Shown: positions 49,837-58,882, counted from the first letter of the stretch. The stretch is 64,000 nucleotides of DNA from Bordetella parapertussis (GCA_945906815.1 CAMDRT010000009.1:17618-81617); one strand, 5' to 3'. The notes: generated from the letters alone by a model not told the origin. A program made the numbers and translations.

Positions 49837-51462
49837 TTGCCCATGCACTGGATCTCCCCTGCAGAGAAGGACATCGGCACCGCCACGCTGGAAAAACGCC
49901 TGTGGGATGCCGCCGACCAGTTCCGCGCCAACTCCGGCCTCAAGGCCCAGGAATATTCCGCGCCGGTGCTTGGTCTCATCTTCCTGCGCTTCGCCGAAGT
50001 GCGCTTCGCCGTGCAGCGCGCCAAGCTGGAGAAAGGTGATGCCTCGTCGCGGCGAGGCTCGCGCGTGGAACAACCTGCTGCCTACTACGCCGCAGGCAGC
50101 CTCTACCTGCCCGCCGAGGCGCGCTTCGATTACCTGCTCAACCGCCCGGAGGGCGACGACATCGGTGCCAGGGTCAATGCCGCCATGCGCGACATCGAAA
50201 AGCACAACCCGCAGCTCGCCGGCGTCCTGCCCAAAACCTACAACCTCTTCACCAGTACCCTGCTCAAGGAACTACTCAAGAATATCTCCGAGATACCCGC
50301 CTCGATGGATTACGACGCCTTCGGGCGCATCTACGAATACTTCCACGGCGAGTTCGCCCGCAGCGAGGGCCAGAAAGGCGGCGAGTTCTACACCCCCAGC
50401 ACCATGGTTCGCCTCCTCACCGAAGTCATCGAGCCGTATCACGGGCGCATCCTCGACCTCGCGTGCGGCACGGGCGGCATGTTCGTGCAATCTGCCCGTT
50501 TCGTGGCCGAACACAAAAACAACCCCGCTGCGGAACTCTCCATCCATGGCGTCGAGAAAACCGACGAAACCGGACGCCTGTGCCGCCTCAATCTCGCCGT
50601 CCACGGTCTCGAAGGCGATATCCGCCACGGCGGCAACGTCAACAGCTACTACGACGACCCGCACAATGCCACCGGCCGCTTCGACTTCGTGCTCGCCAAT
50701 CCGCCGTTCAACGTCAACGCCGTCGACAAGGAGCGTCTGAAAGACGCCGTCGGCCCGGGCCGTCGCTTTGCCTTCGGCCTGCCGCGCACCGACAACGCCA
50801 ACTACCTGTGGATACAACTCTTCCACTCCGCGTTCAATGAAAAGGGCCGTGGCGGATTCGTCATGGCCAACTCCGCCTCCGACGCGCGCAGCTCTGAGCA
50901 GGACATCCGCAGCCAACTCATCGCCAGCCGCGTGGTGGACGTGATGGTCGCTGTCGGCCCGAACATGTTCTACACCGTCACCCTACCCTGCACCTTGTGG
51001 TTCCTGGACAAGGGCAAGACGCAATCAACGCGCGGCGACACCGTGCTGTTCCTCGATGCTCGTCACATCTACCGGCAGGTGGACCGCGCGCACCGTGATT
51101 GGGCGCCCGCGCAGCTTGGCTTTCTCGCAAACCTTGTACGGCTCTATCGCGGCGATGAACTCGACTTTACCCTCGGCGGCGACGAAGCCCGCGCGAAGAT
51201 CGAAGAACTCTTCGGCAAGAAACCGAAATACGCCGACGTACCTGGCCTGTGCAAGGCTGCGACATTGAAAGAGATTGAAGCGCAAGGATGGAGTCTCAAT
51301 CCCGGGCGCTACGTGGGCGTGGCCGCAGGCGACGCCGTGAGCGACGAGGACTTCAAGGAACAACTCGAAACCATGAACGAGGAACTCGAAGTCCTCAACG
51401 CCCAAGCGCGCGACCTCGAACGAACCATCGCCGGCAACGTGGCGGAGATTCTGGAAACATGA
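49837..51462 (+). CDS. hsdM: Type I restriction-modification system methyltransferase subunit HsdM
   Basis: It has an HsdM N-terminal domain ([11 protein letters not shown]), SAM motif [10 protein letters not shown] and catalytic motif IV LANPPFN. Confidence 0.92.
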
Positions 51463-52505
51463 GCGCTTCAAAAGAAATCCATCCTCCAGCCAATGGCCAA
51501 TTCCTAGTCTATACGGCCGAGGACGGGCGGACGAAAATCGAAGTCCGGCTGGAGAACGAAACCGTCTGGCTGACTCAGCAGCATATGGCCGATCTCTTTC
51601 AGACTACCAAGCAGAACGTGAGTCTGCACCTACAAAACGTCTTTTCGGAGCGGGAGTTGGAGCGCGAAGGAACTGTCAAGGAATCCTTGACAGTTCAACA
51701 GGAGGGCGGGCGTTCAGTCCAGCGGCGGATGGAGTTTTACAACCTCGACGCCATCATCTCCGTCGGCTACCGCGTCAAAAGCGCCGTCGCCACCCGCTTT
51801 CGCATCTGGGCCACGCAGAACCTGCGTGAATTCATCGTCAAGGGCTTCGTCCTCGACGACGAGCGCCTGAAAAATCCCGACCAGCCTTTCGATTATTTCG
51901 ACGAGTTGCTGCGGCGGATTCAGGACATCCGCACCTCCGAGCGGCGCTTTTACCAGAAGATCACCGACATCTACGCCACCAGCATCGACTACGATCCCAC
52001 CCAGCCGCTCAGCATCGAGTTCTTCCAGACCGTGCAGAACAAAATGCACTGGGCCATCACCGGCCACACGGCAGCGGAGATCATCCATACCCGTGCCGAT
52101 GCCGCGAAGCCCCACATGGGGCTGACCAACTGGCGCGGTGCGAAAGTCCGCAAGCACGATGTCACCATCGCCAAGAATTATCTCGACGAGCAGGAACTTG
52201 CCGTGCTGAACAACCTGGTTGAGCAATACCTCGTGTTCGCAGAAGGCCAGGCCATGCGCCGCGCTCCCATGCACATGCGCGACTGGATCAGCAAACTCCA
52301 TGGCTTTCTGACCTTGAACGAACGCGCCATTCTGAACCATGCAGGAGAAATATCGCACGAGATGGCGAAGGAACTCGCGGAGGCGGAATACGAGAAATTC
52401 CAACGCGAACAGATTAAGCAAGCCGACCAGGCTGGCGGCGATTTCGACAAGGCCATCAAACAAGTGCCGTCCCAGCCACAACGGAAGAAGGCGAGCAAGA
52501 AATGA
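51459..52505 (+). CDS. rhuM: RhuM-family protein (COG3943-like) embedded in the type I R-M operon
   Basis: The ATG overlaps the hsdM stop (ATGA). The N-terminus [48 protein letters not shown] and the block [15 protein letters not shown] match the remembered RhuM pattern. Confidence 0.8.
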
Positions 52506-52587
52506 GCGGCTCGACAAATGCAAATGGAAGCGCGCAACTTCGAACAACCGTCGCCGGGAACGAAGTGGCGATTCTGGAGGAGTAACG

Positions 52588-52737
52588 ATGGCAAAGGATT
52601 GGCGAACAGCGAAGCTTGGTGAGTTGGTTGCCTTCAAGGCAGGCAAGCTTGACTCAAATGCCGCAGTTCCTGATGGCGACTACACGCCATCGGCTGCCAC
52701 AACAGTGATGTGGCCATGCAGGTGCAGAATTTGCTGA
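52588..52737 (+). pseudogene. hsdS: Truncated hsdS (specificity subunit) stub, about 49 codons
   Basis: A GGAGG RBS precedes MAKDWRTAKLGELVAFKAGKLDSNAAVPDGDY, which looks like the start of an HsdS target-recognition domain. The similarity then ends and a stop follows. No second TRD or central/C-terminal conserved helices occur anywhere in the locus. Confidence 0.5.
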
Positions 52738-52793
52738 AGTCTCAACACCATCGTCCGGCAGTGACTGTCGAATCGGAGTGGTATTATTAAATC

Positions 52794-53858
52794 ATGATGA
52801 AACTGACTCAGGGCAATTTGCTGGCCGCGCCTACCGAGGCACTGGTGAACACCGTGAACACGGTAGGCATCATGGGGCGCGGCATCGCACTGCAATTCAA
52901 ACAGGCGTATCCGGCGATGTTCCGCGAATACGAGCGCGCGTGCAAGGCAGGCGAGGTAAAGCTCGGCCAGGTGCAGGTGGTCGACCTCGGCGGGCTGGCA
53001 GGCGGGCCGCGCTGGATTCTCAATTTCCCTACCAAGGGGCACTGGCGAGCGGATAGCCGCATGGGGGATATCGAGTCGGGGTTGAAGGATTTGGTGGCAA
53101 CGATTCAGAAGCTGAATATCCGTTCGATTGCGATTCCTCCGTTGGGGTGCGGGAATGGCGGCTTGGATTGGAATGATGTCCGTCCCCGCATTGAAGCAGC
53201 ACTCGCGGCAGTGCCAGATGTGGAGGCGCTGGTTTACGCGCCGGGTGCAGCGCCCGAGGCAGCCGCGATGCCGGTTCGGACGGAGCGTCCCAAGATGACC
53301 ATGGGACAGGCGGCAATGATCATATTGATGGATCGCTATCTGAAAGGGTTGCTCGACCCGTTCATCAGCCTGCTGGAGATTCACAAATTATTGTATTTCT
53401 TGCAGGAAGCAGGACAGCCTTTGCGTCTGAATTTTGAAGCGAAACGTTTTGGTCCGTATGCCACGAACTTGCGACAGGTGCTCATCCGCATGGAGAAGCA
53501 CTACACGCAAGGTTACGGGGACGGGAAAGACAGTCCTACCCAACCGATTGAAGTGTTACCCGGGGCGATGGAGGAGGCAGGTAAGTATCTGGCCGGAGAT
53601 GAAACCATTCGCGCACGAATGAGCCGGGTGGCGACGCTCATAGAAGGTTTCGAAGACGCCTACGGCCTGGAGCTCCTGAGTTCGGTGCATTGGGTGATGC
53701 AAAAGAATCCCGAAGCACGCGCGAATTCCGAAACGGCGGTGGCGGCGGTTCACAAATGGAACGCGCGCAAGCGGCGCACCTTGAAGAAGGAGCATATCCT
53801 CGCCGCGTGGGAGCGGCTCAGAGTGCAGGATTGGAGCGAGTCATTCGCGACCGTGTAA
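52794..53858 (+). CDS. Macrodomain protein resembling antitoxin DarG (DNA ADP-ribosyl glycohydrolase) with C-terminal partner-binding-type domain
   Basis: The N-terminal macrodomain blocks are EALVNTVNTVGIMGRGIALQFK, ILNFPTKGHWR and IPPLGCGNGGLDW. The length (354 aa) is similar to known DarG proteins. The C-terminal half contains EIHKLLYFLQEAGQPLRLNFEAKRFGPY, which resembles the Panacea/DUF4065 antitoxin signature. Confidence 0.7.
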   Translation: MMKLTQGNLLAAPTEALVNTVNTVGIMGRGIALQFKQAYPAMFREYERACKAGEVKLGQVQVVDLGGLAGGPRWILNFPTKGHWRADSRMGDIESGLKDLVATIQKLNIRSIAIPPLGCGNGGLDWNDVRPRIEAALAAVPDVEALVYAPGAAPEAAAMPVRTERPKMTMGQAAMIILMDRYLKGLLDPFISLLEIHKLLYFLQEAGQPLRLNFEAKRFGPYATNLRQVLIRMEKHYTQGYGDGKDSPTQPIEVLPGAMEEAGKYLAGDETIRARMSRVATLIEGFEDAYGLELLSSVHWVMQKNPEARANSETAVAAVHKWNARKRRTLKKEHILAAWERLRVQDWSESFATV

Positions 53859-53880
53859 GCTAAGCGGTAGCACTTCTTCG

Positions 53881-54318
53881 ATGAGCGCCCACGCCTACAC
53901 CGAAGACCAACTCGTCGAGCAGCCCGCCATCGCATTGTTCGCGGAGCTAGGCTGGATCACGGTGTCAGCGTTGGAGGAAACCTTCGGCGCGACCAGCACC
54001 TTGCTGCGCGAGACCAAAGGCGAGGTGGTGTTGGTGGCCCGGTTGCGGGCAGCGTTGGACCGCTTGAATCCCGCGCTGCCGCCGGAGGCCATCACCGCCG
54101 CCGTGGATGAATTGACCCGCGACCGTTCGGCCACGAGTCTGGAAGCGGCGAATCGCGAAGTGTATCTGCTGCTCAAGGAGGGTATCAAGATTTTCGTGCC
54201 CGATCACGAACACGGCGGGCAGAAGACGGAGCGCTTGCGGGTAGTGGATTGGGAGCATCCGGCGAACAATGATTTTCTGCTGCTCAGCCAGTGCTACGTC
54301 ATTGGAGTAATTCACTGA
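53881..54318 (+). pseudogene. Duplicated 5' fragment of hsdR (N-terminal 137 codons, ends before the nuclease motif)
   Basis: Positions 53881-54292 align with 55709-56135 at roughly nine in ten positions by eye, with a net 15-bp length difference from two small indels. The fragment stops before the PD...ELK nuclease motif and lacks all helicase motifs. Confidence 0.75.
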
Positions 54319-55706
54319 TGGAAATTTCGCGGCTACTCACGCTTCCGGAGGGCAAGACGCTCGAATTCAAGCGGAACCTGTCGTCGCCGAAGCCAGTGTT
54401 GCGAACGCTGGTGGCGTTTGCCAATACGGCTGGCGGGATGTTGATCATTGGCAGAGCTGATGATGGTGCGGTTGTCGGGGTGGATGATGTATTGGCTGAA
54501 GAGGAACGGCTGGCCAGCCTGATCGCAGACAGCATTGCGCCTGCCATGATGCCCGAAATCGAGGCCGTCACTGTAGACGGCAAAACGTTGTTGCTGGTGC
54601 GCGTAGCTCACTGGCCGGGGCCGTTTTACCTGAAGGAGAAAGGGCCCGCGGATGGCGTGTATGTGCGGCTGGGTTCCACCAACCGTAAGGCGGACGCGAC
54701 CCTGCTCGTAGAACTGGACCGGGTGCACAGCCATAGCGCTTTTGATCAACTGCCCTGTACTGGCACCTCGCCGGGTGATCTGGACAGGGAGGCGGTGCTA
54801 CGCTGGTTTTCCGACAAGAATCGCAACATGGATGCAGCAGCACTGGAATCGCTGGGTATTCTGGCACGCCATGGCAGCGGACGCATGGTCTCCAATGGCG
54901 GCTTAATCCTGTTCGGCAAGGCCGACGTCCGTCAGCGCTGCTTTCCGGATGCCCGCCTTTCCTGCGCGCGCTTTCGCGGCAGCGACAAGAGTGCGTTTAT
55001 AGACCGGCAGGAAATGGAAAGTCTGCTGGATGCAATGACCGAAGTGCCAAAGTTCATTGCCCGTAACACGCGGTTGGCATCGCGCATCGCAGGCATGCAA
55101 CGGCAGGACATCCCTGAATACCCAGCTATTGCTATTCGCGAGGTGCTGGTCAATGCCTTGGCCCATGCCGATTATGCGTGTACCGGTATGCGCATTTTCG
55201 TTTCGATTTTTTCTGATCGGCTAGAAATTCAAAGCCCTGGGATGTTTCCTTTCGGCATGACCCTGGATGATTTCAGGGCGGGTGTAAGCCGAATCAGAAA
55301 TCGCGTGATCTGCCGCGTATTGCATGAGGCGGGACTGATGGAGCAGTGGGGCAGCGGATACCAACGGGTCGTGAACACCTGTATCAGTCAAAACTACCCT
55401 GAACCGGAATGGCAGGAGTTAGGGGCGTGTGTGCGGGTGATATTCCGTCCGCATCCTGATGTCCCTGTAAATGAGCCTGTAAATGAGCCTGTAAATGAGC
55501 CTGTAAATGAGCGGCAACGCTGGTTTATGGCGCAGCTCCAACGCGGTGGGCAGGTCAAAGCTGAAGCTATCGTGAGTCAGTGGAAGGTCAGTCTGGCGAC
55601 AGCCAAACGAGACATTGCATTGCTGCGGAAAAAAGAGTTGGTCGAGTTCGCTGGGGCTGCCAAAACGGGCAGCTATCGATTGAAAACGCCAGGAAATATT
55701 CGCTAG
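54318..55706 (+). CDS. AlbA_2/Schlafen-type divergent AAA domain protein with HATPase_c_4-like region and C-terminal wHTH
   Basis: The ATG overlaps the stop of the hsdR stub. The N-terminus EGKTLEFKRNLSSPKPVLRTLVAFANTAGGMLIIG is the AlbA_2 signature. The mid-region has IREVLVNALAHADY and GSGYQRV, and a C-terminal HTH-like tail follows. Confidence 0.8.
   Translation: MEISRLLTLPEGKTLEFKRNLSSPKPVLRTLVAFANTAGGMLIIGRADDGAVVGVDDVLAEEERLASLIADSIAPAMMPEIEAVTVDGKTLLLVRVAHWPGPFYLKEKGPADGVYVRLGSTNRKADATLLVELDRVHSHSAFDQLPCTGTSPGDLDREAVLRWFSDKNRNMDAAALESLGILARHGSGRMVSNGGLILFGKADVRQRCFPDARLSCARFRGSDKSAFIDRQEMESLLDAMTEVPKFIARNTRLASRIAGMQRQDIPEYPAIAIREVLVNALAHADYACTGMRIFVSIFSDRLEIQSPGMFPFGMTLDDFRAGVSRIRNRVICRVLHEAGLMEQWGSGYQRVVNTCISQNYPEPEWQELGACVRVIFRPHPDVPVNEPVNEPVNEPVNERQRWFMAQLQRGGQVKAEAIVSQWKVSLATAKRDIALLRKKELVEFAGAAKTGSYRLKTPGNIR
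55464..55511 (+). repeat. Perfect 12-bp tandem repeat x4 (cctgtaaatgag) encoding (VNEP)4
   Basis: Read directly from the sequence. It lies in the linker between the ATPase-like region and the wHTH tail. Confidence 0.95.
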
Positions 55707-55708
55707 CC

Positions 55709-58700
55709 ATGCCCCACGCCTACACCGAAGACCAACTCGTAGAGCAGCCCGCCATCGCGCTGTTCGCGGAGCTGGGCTGGACCACGGTGTCGGCATTGGA
55801 GGAAACCTTCGGCGCGACCGGCACCCTGCTGCGCGAGACCAAGGGCGAGGTGGTGCTGGTGGGCCGGTTGCGCGCGGCGTTGGAGCGCATGAATCCCGCG
55901 CTGCCGCCGGAGGCCATCACCACCGCCGTGGATGAATTGACCCGAGACCGTTCGGCCATGAGCCTGGAAGCGGCGAATCGCGAGGTGTATCTGCTGCTCA
56001 AGGAGGGCATCAAGGTATCGGTGCCTGAAAACGAACCCGATGGGTTGCGCGGGCGCGGCGGGCAGAAGACAGAGCGCTTGCGGGTGATGGATTGGGCGCA
56101 TCCGGCGAACAATGATTTTCTGCTGGTCAGCCAGTTCAGCGTCACCGGCGCGCTCTACACCTGCCGGCCGGATTTGGTGTGCTTCGTCAACGGCCTGCCG
56201 CTGGTGGTCATCGAGTTGAAAAAGCCCGGCGTACCCGCGCGCGCGGCGTTCGACGAAAACCTGACGCACTACAAGCAGCAAGTGCCGGCGCTGTTCTGGT
56301 ACAACGCGCTGCTCATCGCCTCGAATGGCACCGATAGCCGCGTCGGCTCGCTGACGGCGGATTGGGAACGGTTCTTCGAGTGGAAGCGCATCGAGCGCGA
56401 GGACGAGCCGCGCCGCGTGTCGCTGGAGGTGATGTTACGCGGCACCTGCGACCGCACACGGCTGCTCGACCTGCTGGAAAACTTCACCCTGTTCTCGGAG
56501 CACAAGTCCGGGCTGGTGAAGATCATCGGGCAGAATCACCAGTTCCTCGGCGTGAACAACGCCATCGCCTCGATGCTCGCCGCGCGCACGCTGGGCCACG
56601 GTCGCGGCGGCGTGTACTGGCAGACGCAGGGCAGCGGCAAGAGTTTCTCGATGGTGTTCTTCGCGCAGAAGGTGCTGCGTAAGGTGGCAGGCAACTGGAC
56701 GTTCGTGGTGGTGACCGACCGCGTGGAACTGGACGAGCAGATTGCGAAGACGTTCAAGGCCGCCGGCGCGGTAAGCGAAACCGAAGGCGAGCAGTGCCAC
56801 GCCGCCAGCGGCGCGCACCTGCGCGAACTGTTGCGCGGCAATCATCGCTACGTGTTCACGCTCATACATAAGTTCCAGACGCCGGAGATGCTGTGCGACC
56901 GGCCCGATGTGATGGTGCTCACGGACGAAGCGCATCGCAGCCAATACGACACGCTGGCGCTGAACATGCGAGCGGCGCTGCCAAAGGCGCTGTTCCTCGC
57001 TTTCACCGGCACGCCACTCATCGCCGGCGAGGAACGCACGAAAGCGCTTTTCGGCGATTACGTTTCCATCTACGATTTCCAGCAATCGGTCGAGGATGGC
57101 GCGACCGTGCGGCTGTTCTACGAGAATCGCACGCCGGAGTTGCAGCTCGTCAACCCGGACCTGAACGAGGACATCTACAACCTGATTGAGGCGGCGGAAC
57201 TCGACCCCGAACAGGAAACAAAGCTCGAACGGGAGTTGAGCCGGCAATACCACATCCTCACCCGCGATGACCGGCTGGAAACCGTGGCGCAGGACATCGT
57301 GCGGCATTTCCTCGGGCGTGGTTTCATGGGCAAGGCGATGGTGGTATCCATCGACAAGGCCACCGCGCTCAAGATGCACAACAAGGTGCGCAGGCACTGG
57401 GCTGCAGAACGGGCGCGGGTAGAGAGGGAACTGGGGCGCGACGACCTCGCGGCGGAGCAGCAAGTTGAGCTATTCAAACATCTGGCCGTAATCCAGACAA
57501 CCGACATGGCGCTGATCGTCTCGCCCGGCCAGAACGAGATTCAGCACATGCAGGCGCGCGACCTCGACATCGTGCCGCACCGCAAGCGCATGAACGAATC
57601 GAACCCGTCGCTGGACGAAAAGTTCAAAGACCCTGACGACCCGCTGCGGCTGGTGTTTCTGTGCGCCATGTGGCTGACCGGTTTCGATGCGCCCAGCTGT
57701 TCCACGGTGTATCTCGACAAACCGATGCGCAATCACACGCTGATGCAGACCATTGCGCGAGCGAACCGCGTGTTCCCCGGCAAGCACAGCGGCGTGATTG
57801 TGGATTATGCGAACGTGTTCGTGTCACTGGAGAAAGCCCTTGCCATCTATGGCGCCGGCAAAGACGGCAAGACGCCAGTGCGCGACAAAAAGCAGCTCGT
57901 TGAAGACCTGCGGCGCTCTGTGGCAGAGGCCACTGCGTTCTGTACTAAGCACGGCGTGGAATTGCCCGCCATTGAGCAACTGGCTGCCGGGGGTATGGAG
58001 AAGCTGGCCCGGATAGACGACGCGGTCAATGCGCTGATCTCGCCCGACCCGCTGCGCAGGGAATTCCTCGCGCATGAGCGTATTGTGAAAACGCTTTATG
58101 ACGCGGTGAAGCCGGACCCTGCCGCGCTGGAGTTCGCACCCCGCATCGGTTGCCTTGCTGCCATCGCCGGCGCCATCCGCGCCAAAATCAATCCCGGCAG
58201 CCCGGACATCTCCGGGGTCATGGGCCAGATCAATTCACTACTCGACGCCTCGATTGAAGGCGTCACGATGTCTGACAAGGCAGTGCCGGCGCTGGATCTT
58301 TCAAAGATCGATTTCGAAAAGCTTGCCGCTCATTTTAAGGCGACCCGGCACAAGAATATTGAACTGGAATCGCTCAAAGCGGCGGTGCGCGCGATGCTTG
58401 AGCGCCTGATCCATTTGAACAAAACGCGCGCCGATTTTCAGGAAAGGTTCGAGGAACTGATCGACGCCTACAACGCCGGCAGCAAGAATATCGATGATCT
58501 GTTCGCTGAATTGTTGGTACTTAGCCGTGCCTTGACTGAAGAGCAGACACGCCACGTACGCGAGAACCTGACCGAGGAGGAATTGACCATTTTGGACATC
58601 CTTACCCGGCCTGCACCGGCGTTGAACAGTGGGGAGCGCGATGAAGTGAAGAAAGTCGCGCGTGAACTGCTTGCGCGCCTTAAAGAACTGCTGGTGCTGA

Positions 58701-58882
58701 ACTGGCGTGGAAAGGCGTCGGCACGCTCGCAAGTCAAGCTCGCGATCGAAGACATCCTCGACAGCGGATTGCCGCGTGTCTACACCCCCGACCTCTATCA
58801 GCAGAAATGCTCGGCGCTATTCGAGCATGTCTATGAGAGCTATGCCGAGCGCAATCAGGGTGTATACGCGGCAACGGCGTGA
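55709..58882 (+). CDS. hsdR: Type I restriction enzyme R subunit HsdR
   Basis: It has the nuclease motif RPDLVCFVNGLPLVVIELKK, helicase motif I TQGSGKS, DEAH box LTDEAHRSQ and motif VI QTIARANR. The C-terminal domain matches type IC/ID-like HsdR length (1057 aa). Confidence 0.95.
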   Translation: MPHAYTEDQLVEQPAIALFAELGWTTVSALEETFGATGTLLRETKGEVVLVGRLRAALERMNPALPPEAITTAVDELTRDRSAMSLEAANREVYLLLKEGIKVSVPENEPDGLRGRGGQKTERLRVMDWAHPANNDFLLVSQFSVTGALYTCRPDLVCFVNGLPLVVIELKKPGVPARAAFDENLTHYKQQVPALFWYNALLIASNGTDSRVGSLTADWERFFEWKRIEREDEPRRVSLEVMLRGTCDRTRLLDLLENFTLFSEHKSGLVKIIGQNHQFLGVNNAIASMLAARTLGHGRGGVYWQTQGSGKSFSMVFFAQKVLRKVAGNWTFVVVTDRVELDEQIAKTFKAAGAVSETEGEQCHAASGAHLRELLRGNHRYVFTLIHKFQTPEMLCDRPDVMVLTDEAHRSQYDTLALNMRAALPKALFLAFTGTPLIAGEERTKALFGDYVSIYDFQQSVEDGATVRLFYENRTPELQLVNPDLNEDIYNLIEAAELDPEQETKLERELSRQYHILTRDDRLETVAQDIVRHFLGRGFMGKAMVVSIDKATALKMHNKVRRHWAAERARVERELGRDDLAAEQQVELFKHLAVIQTTDMALIVSPGQNEIQHMQARDLDIVPHRKRMNESNPSLDEKFKDPDDPLRLVFLCAMWLTGFDAPSCSTVYLDKPMRNHTLMQTIARANRVFPGKHSGVIVDYANVFVSLEKALAIYGAGKDGKTPVRDKKQLVEDLRRSVAEATAFCTKHGVELPAIEQLAAGGMEKLARIDDAVNALISPDPLRREFLAHERIVKTLYDAVKPDPAALEFAPRIGCLAAIAGAIRAKINPGSPDISGVMGQINSLLDASIEGVTMSDKAVPALDLSKIDFEKLAAHFKATRHKNIELESLKAAVRAMLERLIHLNKTRADFQERFEELIDAYNAGSKNIDDLFAELLVLSRALTEEQTRHVRENLTEEELTILDILTRPAPALNSGERDEVKKVARELLARLKELLVLNWRGKASARSQVKLAIEDILDSGLPRVYTPDLYQQKCSALFEHVYESYAERNQGVYAATA

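Follow-up and report, generated by a model that had tools for sequence, protein, structure and literature searches.

Results

A direct repeat of the hsdR 5' end brackets an AlbA_2 gene

The 64,000-nucleotide stretch of Bordetella parapertussis DNA analyzed here (GCA_945906815.1 CAMDRT010000009.1:17618-81617; the window, numbered from its first letter) contains a type I restriction-modification (R-M) locus in which hsdM, rhuM, a wreck of ~200 bp, darG, a truncated hsdR (hsdR'), a gene of the AlbA_2 family and an intact hsdR are all co-oriented. The subject of this report is the direct repeat formed by hsdR' and the 5' end of the intact hsdR, which together bracket the AlbA_2 gene. The features of the bracketed region are as follows.

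53881..54318, + strand: hsdR' stub open reading frame (ORF) of 145 codons, which matches positions 2-120 of 198 only of the Pfam HSDR_N profile
53888..54306, + strand: direct repeat, copy 1 (repeat search, MAFFT, blastn and codon alignment)
54318..55706, + strand: AlbA_2 (Schlafen-like) + HATPase_c_4 + C-terminal helix-turn-helix (HTH) gene, the bracketed cargo (Pfam SLFN_AlbA_2 and HATPase_c_4; weak HTH_DeoR)
55464..55512, + strand: 12-bp tandem repeat, PVNE x4, in the AlbA_2 linker (Tandem Repeats Finder, 4.1 copies, 100% match)
55709..58882, + strand: intact hsdR, 1057 aa (Pfam HSDR_N in full, SWI2_SNF2/ResIII, T1R_D3-like and T1RH-like_C; NCBIfam TIGR00348, 468 bits)
55713..56149, + strand: direct repeat, copy 2, the 5' end of the intact hsdR (same four methods as copy 1)

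The original prediction placed a duplicated hsdR 5' end on both sides of the AlbA_2 gene, and the duplication is confirmed as real and correctly located. The repeat search returned two blocks, 53888-54187 versus 55713-56012 (93% identity) and 54213-54301 versus 56056-56144 (91%). The two copies aligned by blastn at 87.7% identity across 423 columns (E = 1e-135) with a concordant MAFFT alignment, and the codon alignment gave 90.4% identity with differences at 40 of 417 ungapped positions. The copies measure ~419 and 437 bp and correspond to the first ~142-147 codons of hsdR. Two indels, both in frame, distinguish copy 1 (+3 bp at codon 2, -18 bp at codons 110-115), and the net 15 bp and the overall identity agree with the nine in ten positions and two small indels first estimated by eye.

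The boundaries of the repeat were located from these alignments. Homology begins at hsdR codon 2-3, and the sequences 5' of this onset, on the darG side of one copy and the AlbA_2 side of the other, are unrelated. Homology ends at ~54301-54306, 12-17 nt short of the AlbA_2 ATG at 54318. The end of homology lies slightly beyond the predicted position 54292, and the predicted overlap of stop and start is correct: the stub TGA (54316-54318) and the AlbA_2 ATG share one base (CACTGATGG). The factual parts of the original prediction are thus all upheld. A GGAG is created at the stub/AlbA_2 junction, 8 nt 5' of the AlbA_2 ATG. This left junction (54301-54306 joined to AlbA_2 -12) is non-homologous. 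On the other side of the gene, the hsdR ATG begins 2 nt past the AlbA_2 stop, and the repeat ends where it does in copy 2 because the stub is truncated there and not at any boundary within copy 2. The repeat covers the hsdR start region and the downstream copy is the complete 1057-aa hsdR, so the restriction gene is kept whole.

The AlbA_2 gene (1.39 kb) is the only gene between the copies, and the outer neighbors are darG and hsdR. Gene calls and a Pfam scan of the window detected no transposase or integrase in or beside the insert, and the repeat search of the window found no terminal inverted repeats bracketing it. Promoter and terminator scans of 52400-56300 gave only background-level signals.

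The duplication is present in independent assemblies

The concern that the repeat might be a misassembly was addressed by comparison with other assemblies, and three independent assemblies, counting that of the window, have the same structure. The second assembly, ENA ERZ27280328 (74 kb contig), encodes an identical stub protein and is 99.88% identical over 12.9 kb. The third, ERZ27280264, covers the locus from end to end on a 106 kb contig, again with stub, AlbA_2 and hsdR (99.9% identity). Two contigs encode the exact stub protein.

A chimeric join or an expanded repeat would leave the window as an assembly artefact, and the evidence makes this explanation extremely improbable. The window does derive from a metagenome-type assembly, and shorter contigs from other samples break at the repeat, with L178 stopping at 54174 and both L179 and L180 at 53910. 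Assemblers based on k-mers tend to break within repeats. Against an artefact, the three assemblies concur, one of them through the 106-kb spanning contig, and 10% of positions and two indels separate the copies. A difference of 1 base in 10 renders collapse or expansion of a repeat implausible. A like architecture also occurs in unrelated loci, including the isolate genome of Thauera phenylacetica B4P, in which glmS forms the flanks.

The two copies have different closest relatives

The origins of the two hsdR 5' ends were compared in an alignment of 120 hsdR N-termini with 1000 column bootstrap resamples. The stub is nearest to proteins P0002 and P0006 (91%) and the full copy is nearest to P0003 (92%). 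The copies share 87.5% identity with one another, and one was the nearest neighbor of the other in only 1.7% and 2.4% of the resamples. The comparison with other hsdR genes proposed in the original prediction therefore assigned the two ends to different closest relatives.

The ratio of nonsynonymous to synonymous substitution rates (dN/dS) is 0.30 for this pair of copies, which have 21.5 synonymous and 21.5 nonsynonymous differences; the value is within the range of 0.13-0.31 calculated between intact hsdR orthologues. The pooled ratio of nonsynonymous to synonymous differences per site (pN/pS) over five stub/full pairs is likewise 0.30. These five pairs have 60 nonsynonymous differences compared to the ~100-115 expected under neutral decay of the stubs after a true duplication (Poisson p ≤ 1e-5). 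The different nearest relatives and the synonymous bias point to two alleles joined by recombination and not to a fresh duplication. These comparisons favor the view that the copies were two already diverged hsdR alleles when they were brought together, rather than products of an in situ duplication followed by neutral decay.

The G+C content at third codon positions (GC3) is 0.62 for AlbA_2 and 0.78 and 0.83 for the hsdR copies. GC3 was considered as a marker of a foreign segment and rejected, because AlbA_2 lies below the hsd genes in every related locus; the offset is uninformative on recency.

The hsdR' stub ends before the nuclease motif

The stub consists of ~142 hsdR codons followed by V-I-H and a stop, with the C-terminus ...LSQCYVIGVIH. 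Alignment with EcoR124I HsdR shows that it ends 6-8 residues before the Asp aligned with EcoR124I D151 (RPD...IELK), in keeping with the earlier observation that the stub stops just short of the PD-(D/E)xK motif. The stub therefore lacks the entire D...ExK catalytic triad. It carries rare residues at family positions that are 94-98% conserved (G39S, M85T, V104I and S105F), and the count of rare residues at highly conserved positions is 8 in the stub versus 5 in the full copy. This excess fits mild relaxation after the segment would have become a stub. Judged from its sequence, the stub is most likely not an enzyme itself, and at most a translated leader coupled to AlbA_2 and a homology arm.

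Other hsdR N-termini also end in this region. About 10 distinct non-homologous tails start within hsdR codons ~134-149, shortly 5' of the RPD...ELK nuclease motif, in a set made up of P0004, P0006, P0008, P0021, P0035, P0036, P0037, P0066/67/91, P0069, P0081 and P0083. The clustering could arise from a breakpoint hotspot, from selection against nuclease-containing fragments or from detection bias. One of these proteins, P0006, is an internal hsdR deletion and not an insertion.

Short HSDR_N proteins were considered as instances of a general stub phenomenon, with a mixed outcome: P0111 is a frameshifted hsdR, P0005 an hsdR cut short beside RadC and integrative and conjugative element genes, and P0006 the internally deleted gene. 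P0066 alone, among the short proteins checked, proved to mark a further stub-AlbA_2-hsdR locus. The matches of an exhaustive representative search with the stub were nearly all fragmentary short proteins, and they yield no usable stub frequency.

The footprint recurs at other AlbA_2 loci

The same junction exists in a diverged lineage. Protein P0004 has 145 aa, is 84% identical to the stub and ends in ...VSQFGVIGEIN. A degenerate hsdR 5' relic of ~22 codons precedes AlbA_2 in loci L088-90, in the Gallionella locus L009 and in L100 (MNTHTYIEDLLVEQPATQCF, VNSFAYIEGLFVEYPVIKRF and MSFNTYSEGQSAIQCF), and the relics of L009, L100 and L088 share one common junction directly after ...GCTTCCCT. The relics were detected by nhmmer in L088 (E = 1e-5) and L009 (E = 0.006) and by eye and alignment in L100. 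The genes 5' of the relic differ, being DarG in L009, DUF3800 in L100 and an unrelated ORF in L088. The window stub and the L088 relic share an 8-nt match, CCAGTGCT, at their ends. A microhomology junction was considered for it and dropped, because hsdR homology runs on beyond the match.

Loci L185 and L186 were found through the stub and not through AlbA_2. Their gene order is fic, a 145-aa hsdR' stub, AlbA_2 and hsdR. The stub has a different junction (after NDFLL), again with a TGATG overlap, the repeat is at least 309 bp at 94.5% identity, and the 633-aa AlbA_2 protein is only 28% identical to the window protein. Locus L102 has the order hsdR' (~87 codons)-AlbA_2-hsdR in another hsdR subfamily.

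The duplicated gene is not always hsdR. The arrangements fic' (54 codons)-AlbA_2-fic, pglZ'-AlbA_2-pglZ and glmS' (27 codons)-AlbA_2-glmS were found in L099, L037 and Thauera phenylacetica B4P, respectively. Duplications of a 3' end at AlbA_2 involve a RidA gene, a Polysacc_synt_2 gene and an ORF without a Pfam hit, and a 44-bp tRNA-Pro half-copy flanks AlbA_2 in L144. The AlbA_2 loci number 147 (L008-L087, L097-L176, L088, L093 and L185), with details taken for L016, L020, L037, L051, L056, L099, L107 and L144.

Enrichment was measured by comparing 700 bp upstream with 700 bp downstream of AlbA_2, with same-size intervals from the same loci as controls. Direct repeats flank AlbA_2 in 20 of 116 loci compared to 9 of 342 controls (17% versus 2.6%), an odds ratio of 7.7 (Fisher p = 4e-7). 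The repeats are 27-330 bp long and 70-100% identical. Around AlbA_2-family genes the footprint thus recurs in unrelated taxa and is enriched, in type I R-M, bacteriophage exclusion (BREX) and other loci.

Plasmids were also examined. A second 5' copy was present in 0 of 55 plasmid hsdR genes of the same family, and no annotated stub adjoins AlbA_2 in the AlbA_2 plasmid matches examined, in a PLSDB gene table that omits pseudogenes. In these plasmid loci, AlbA_2 is directly 5' of hsdR (Arcobacter CP146529) or between brxC and pglX (Azotobacter NZ_CP045303).

Locus L056 (241-5108) has the order AlbA_2, gene X, AlbA_2 and X', where X' is a 3' end (330 bp at 91.5%) and the two AlbA_2 genes are paralogues. 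From its arrangement, this locus looks like an amplification of a unit of AlbA_2 plus its neighbor through the flanking repeats.

The AlbA_2 gene and its close relatives

The closest homologues of the window AlbA_2 protein (82-87%) are all encoded immediately 5' of the same hsdR family, and its N-terminus, MEISRLLTLPEGKTLEFK, agrees with the starts of homologues. The protein has 462 aa in the window and 458 aa in L001 and L181, and one 12-bp gap separates L001 from the window. No PADLOC system model matched the protein, which has only partial similarity to the pAgo and Aga models, and no NCBIfam family matched. Loci L091-97 have AlbA_2-hsdR without a long stub.

The PVNE repeat sits before the C-terminal HTH, and two other assemblies are one unit shorter, which indicates a polymorphic copy number. 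An analogous repeat, of ASNR, occupies a comparable position in the L037 AlbA_2.

A perfect 10-bp inverted repeat, GATGGGAAAA-N8-TTTTCCCATC, lies upstream of AlbA_2 in L009 (9782-9809) and also in L093, L097 and L100. The L009-type inverted repeat has an RNA fold z-score of -3.8, and the conserved hairpin region of these related cassettes has no match in Rfam. It is followed by a conserved ORF of 56-57 codons with a TGA that overlaps the AlbA_2 ATG. The window has neither the inverted repeat nor this ORF, and its stub directly abuts AlbA_2.

The surrounding type I and DarTG genes are decayed

The genes upstream of the bracketed region are as follows.

49843..51462, + strand: hsdM, type I methyltransferase, first in the locus (Pfam HsdM_N + N6_Mtase)
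51459..52505, + strand: rhuM-family gene nested behind hsdM (Pfam Virulence_RhuM, 383 bits; PADLOC PDC-S05)
52589..52690, + strand: hsdS 5' stub of ~33 codons (translation MAKDWRTAKLGELVAFKAGK..., after which hsdS similarity is lost)
52680..52790, + strand: darT 3' remnant, the last ~36 codons (tblastn with L009 DarT residues 174-209, 47% identity, E = 1.5e-7)
52794..53858, + strand: darG, macro-domain antitoxin (NCBIfam antitoxin_DarG equivalog, 456.6 bits with a cut-off of 250; PADLOC DarG; Pfam Macro)

An identical HsdM protein is present in a public collection. The wreck at 52589-52790 is a fusion of the first ~33 hsdS codons to the last ~36 darT codons (…AIGCHNSDVAMQVQNLLKSQHHRPAVTVESEWYY and a stop). 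The L009 orf209 protein used to recognize the remnant is DarT by NCBIfam NF048013 (224 bits). The fusion indicates a single deletion that eliminated the specificity subunit together with the toxin DarT and orphaned DarG. The DarTG pair is thus incomplete, with DarG but no toxin. The full HsdS proteins of L182 and L009 gave no tblastn match at E<0.01 anywhere in the window, where hsdM and hsdR are intact and hsdS is reduced to ~33 codons. As encoded in the window, this type I system is decayed and without HsdS; an hsdS elsewhere in the genome could act in trans.

Relatives of the locus show what this region can contain. Locus L182, in which hsdM is at least 90% identical, keeps hsdS intact (395 aa) in the corresponding position. 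In L182 (13991-16256), hsdM-rhuM has 84-91% nucleotide identity to that of the window, and hsdS is followed by CTD6 and MC2 domain genes that replace darTG and AlbA_2. This difference in cargo indicates that the genes between hsdS and hsdR are exchanged among close relatives. In a related genome (contigs of ERZ1305449), the hsd locus occupies this same site in the chromosome (TrkH-TrkA...GGDEF/EAL-hsdM) and is rearranged: hsdM is truncated, and pieces of rhuM and of the hsdR C-terminus are inverted and alternate with ppk and yggX.

Discussion

Origin of the structure

We consider it probable, though well short of certain, that the repeat is a recombination scar in which two alleles of one hsdR family were joined, so that AlbA_2 now lies directly 5' of an intact hsdR and ~142 codons of the other allele persist as a catalytically dead stub. 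Recombination between two related type I loci is the likely source and the best reading of the sequences. The proposal that the cassette entered by homologous recombination between such loci is upheld as far as the two alleles and their different relatives are concerned, but it does not account for the non-homologous junction between the stub and AlbA_2. Homologous recombination alone is insufficient to make this junction, which requires at least one illegitimate joining event or circular intermediate.

The simplest scheme would start with one rare illegitimate join that placed the region just 5' of AlbA_2, a gene already located before an hsdR, beside codon ~142 of another hsdR allele. A candidate for this step is homology-facilitated illegitimate recombination anchored in hsdR, a process reportedly described by de Vries and Wackernagel in 2002 and by Prudhomme et al. 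in 2002. Alternatively, a circle containing AlbA_2 and an hsdR 5' segment might integrate by a single, Campbell-type crossover. Either route would yield hsdR'-AlbA_2-hsdR with one intact hsdR. A RecA-dependent double crossover could then set the module before any related hsdR without inactivating that gene and irrespective of the upstream gene, since hsdR sequence on both sides of the module allows an ordinary double crossover to place it. Upstream cargo that natively abuts an hsdR start could be exchanged in by the same step. The same stub/AlbA_2 junctions do occur behind different upstream genes. Recombination between the two repeats would delete AlbA_2 and leave one hybrid hsdR. The suggestion that the repeats are a substrate for excision or exchange is plausible for exchange, given the junctions behind differing genes; an excised or looped-out variant was not found among the loci examined. 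The stub would be translated from the old hsdR start, and the overlap of its stop with the AlbA_2 start suggests coupling that would chain AlbA_2 into the operon.

The order of arrival may also have been the reverse. Entry of darG and hsdR' before a resident AlbA_2-hsdR, anchored on the left, would give the same product and is equally compatible with the data. The predicted cassette of AlbA_2 plus a foreign hsdR 5' end and no more is not supported, given that the truncation of the stub alone defines where the repeat stops in copy 2. A tandem duplication of AlbA_2 with hsdR codons 1-142, after which the first AlbA_2 was lost, was rejected as unparsimonious, because the stub starts exactly at a native darG-hsdR start junction.

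Several points weigh against a scar left by joining two alleles. No empty site, with darG directly before a single hsdR, and no donor locus were recovered among the relatives examined, so we infer the direction and number of events. The close hsdM relatives in the empty-site search had the same structure (L181), other cargo (L182, hsdS-CTD6-MC2) or an inverted decayed locus. Homologous pairing could have run through copies that are 90% identical, and a simple model with one anchor then has geometric difficulty with a join at codon ~142. Low dN/dS in several stubs and the intact ORF in P0004 could reflect selection on the stub rather than recent juxtaposition, and later gene conversion with foreign hsdR alleles could mimic separate alleles. 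The control intervals in the enrichment test are mostly core genes rather than other accessory genes, so part of the enrichment may reflect recent acquisition generally.

The explanations that compete with an allelic scar differ in what they expect of the two copies. If AlbA_2 alone had entered one hsdR and repair or replication had copied ~420 bp on both sides, the copies would have diverged only afterwards. This in situ insertion is the literal model of the published class of insertions with long target duplication, and it agrees with the presence of nothing except AlbA_2 between the repeats and with an AlbA_2 GC3 below that of both hsdR copies. The GC3 offset loses its force because it is present in every related locus. 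The copies are not mutual nearest relatives, and their dN/dS of 0.30, not about 0.55, speaks against one copy decaying neutrally, which leaves in situ duplication an unlikely account, if one still to be reckoned with.

The same low ratios have another possible meaning. Selection might keep the duplication if the stand-alone HsdR N-terminal fragment served the AlbA_2 protein or the type I complex as a partner, a regulator or a sensed target. The P0004 lineage (16% protein divergence) has kept the 145-codon ORF whole and shares its junction, the P0066/67/91 stub family is likewise intact and dN/dS is 0.08-0.31 in four pairs, all in line with a functional stub, as is its own ATG coupled to AlbA_2. 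It is also the case that hsdR' stubs were joined independently to two AlbA_2 proteins just 28% identical. What speaks against a function is that the fragment ends within the PD-(D/E)xK domain with no catalytic residues, has G39S, M85T, V104I and S105F at strongly conserved positions, and belongs to a series in which stub lengths run from ~22 to ~142 codons and in which the 5' ends of fic, pglZ and glmS, the 3' ends of unrelated genes and a tRNA are also duplicated. Variable stub length and unrelated duplicated targets fit a scar and not a partner protein, and a functional stub is accordingly hard to credit.

Implications

Defence genes are often nested in type I R-M and BREX operons, but how they arrive while the host operon stays unbroken is seldom documented, and the window gives a concrete footprint. 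The duplicated 5' end leaves the restriction gene whole, would chain the new gene translationally into the operon and flanks the insert with recombinable homology. The footprint offers a simple signature by which embedded defence genes that moved recently can be searched for, and it extends a mode of mobility described so far mainly for R-M genes to another defence-associated family. A tentative generalization, which we regard as more likely wrong than right, is that AlbA_2/COG2865-type genes are recombination-mobilized single-gene cassettes that use the 5' (or, on their 3' side, the 3') end of a neighbor, fused to the start of the cassette gene through overlapping stop and start codons, as a portable homology arm and coupling leader, with host RecA inserting them before conserved genes such as hsdR, fic, pglZ or glmS, which would stay active, and looping them out. 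A bolder extension is that the AlbA_2 protein itself might promote the breakage or joining behind long duplications.

Comparison with known systems

Nobusato et al. 2000 (Gene 259:99) reported insertion with long target duplication for R-M genes, and Furuta et al. 2010 (Nucleic Acids Research, PMC2853133) carried out a survey of the class. Members of this class consist of 1 or few defence genes in an insert of <20 kb with no transposase or integrase, flanked by direct repeats >30 bp of variable length (PMC2853133). The repeats often cover a start or stop codon and leave the target gene intact; the mechanism was left open, and amplification and release through the repeats were proposed (PMC2853133). 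By its structure, the window locus matches this class, with repeats of ~419 and 437 bp, no mobility gene, a 1.39-kb insert and an intact hsdR. The mechanism as such is thus not new, and the kind of event is already described; what is added here is its recurrence and enrichment around AlbA_2-family genes. The locus differs from the original class in its cargo, which is of the AlbA_2/COG2865 type instead of an R-M gene, and in its target, which is the 5' end of a restriction gene inside its own operon. Its copies also resemble different alleles and not a fresh duplication, and no empty site was recovered.

Islands at tRNA genes use a site-specific integrase and a fixed att core, and they duplicate part of the target while leaving it intact. 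The window resembles them in that a direct repeat of a portion of the target flanks the insert and the target is whole, and L144 has this form. Unlike such islands and unlike transposons, the window insert has no integrase, transposase or inverted repeats, and both repeat length and target vary among loci.

Defence genes embedded in a type I R-M operon are exemplified by TgvAB of Vibrio cholerae VPI-2 (PMC11411939). The window is similar to such loci in type I R-M and BREX operons in that rhuM, darTG and AlbA_2 are nested among the hsd genes and co-oriented with them. The published accounts (PMC11411939, PMC12707154) describe embedded genes but not a duplicated host-gene 5' end as an insertion footprint.

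The displacement arrays of type VI secretion system (T6SS) effector-immunity and Rhs genes arise by homology-facilitated illegitimate recombination at a conserved anchor and contain orphan remnants (PMC5361080). The likeness to the window is that incoming DNA is anchored by a conserved gene segment and joined illegitimately at its other end, with a truncated remnant of the resident gene left beside the module. The polarity differs. The T6SS and Rhs arrays have a 5' anchor with orphan 3' ends downstream, whereas the window has an intact gene downstream and an orphan 5' end upstream.

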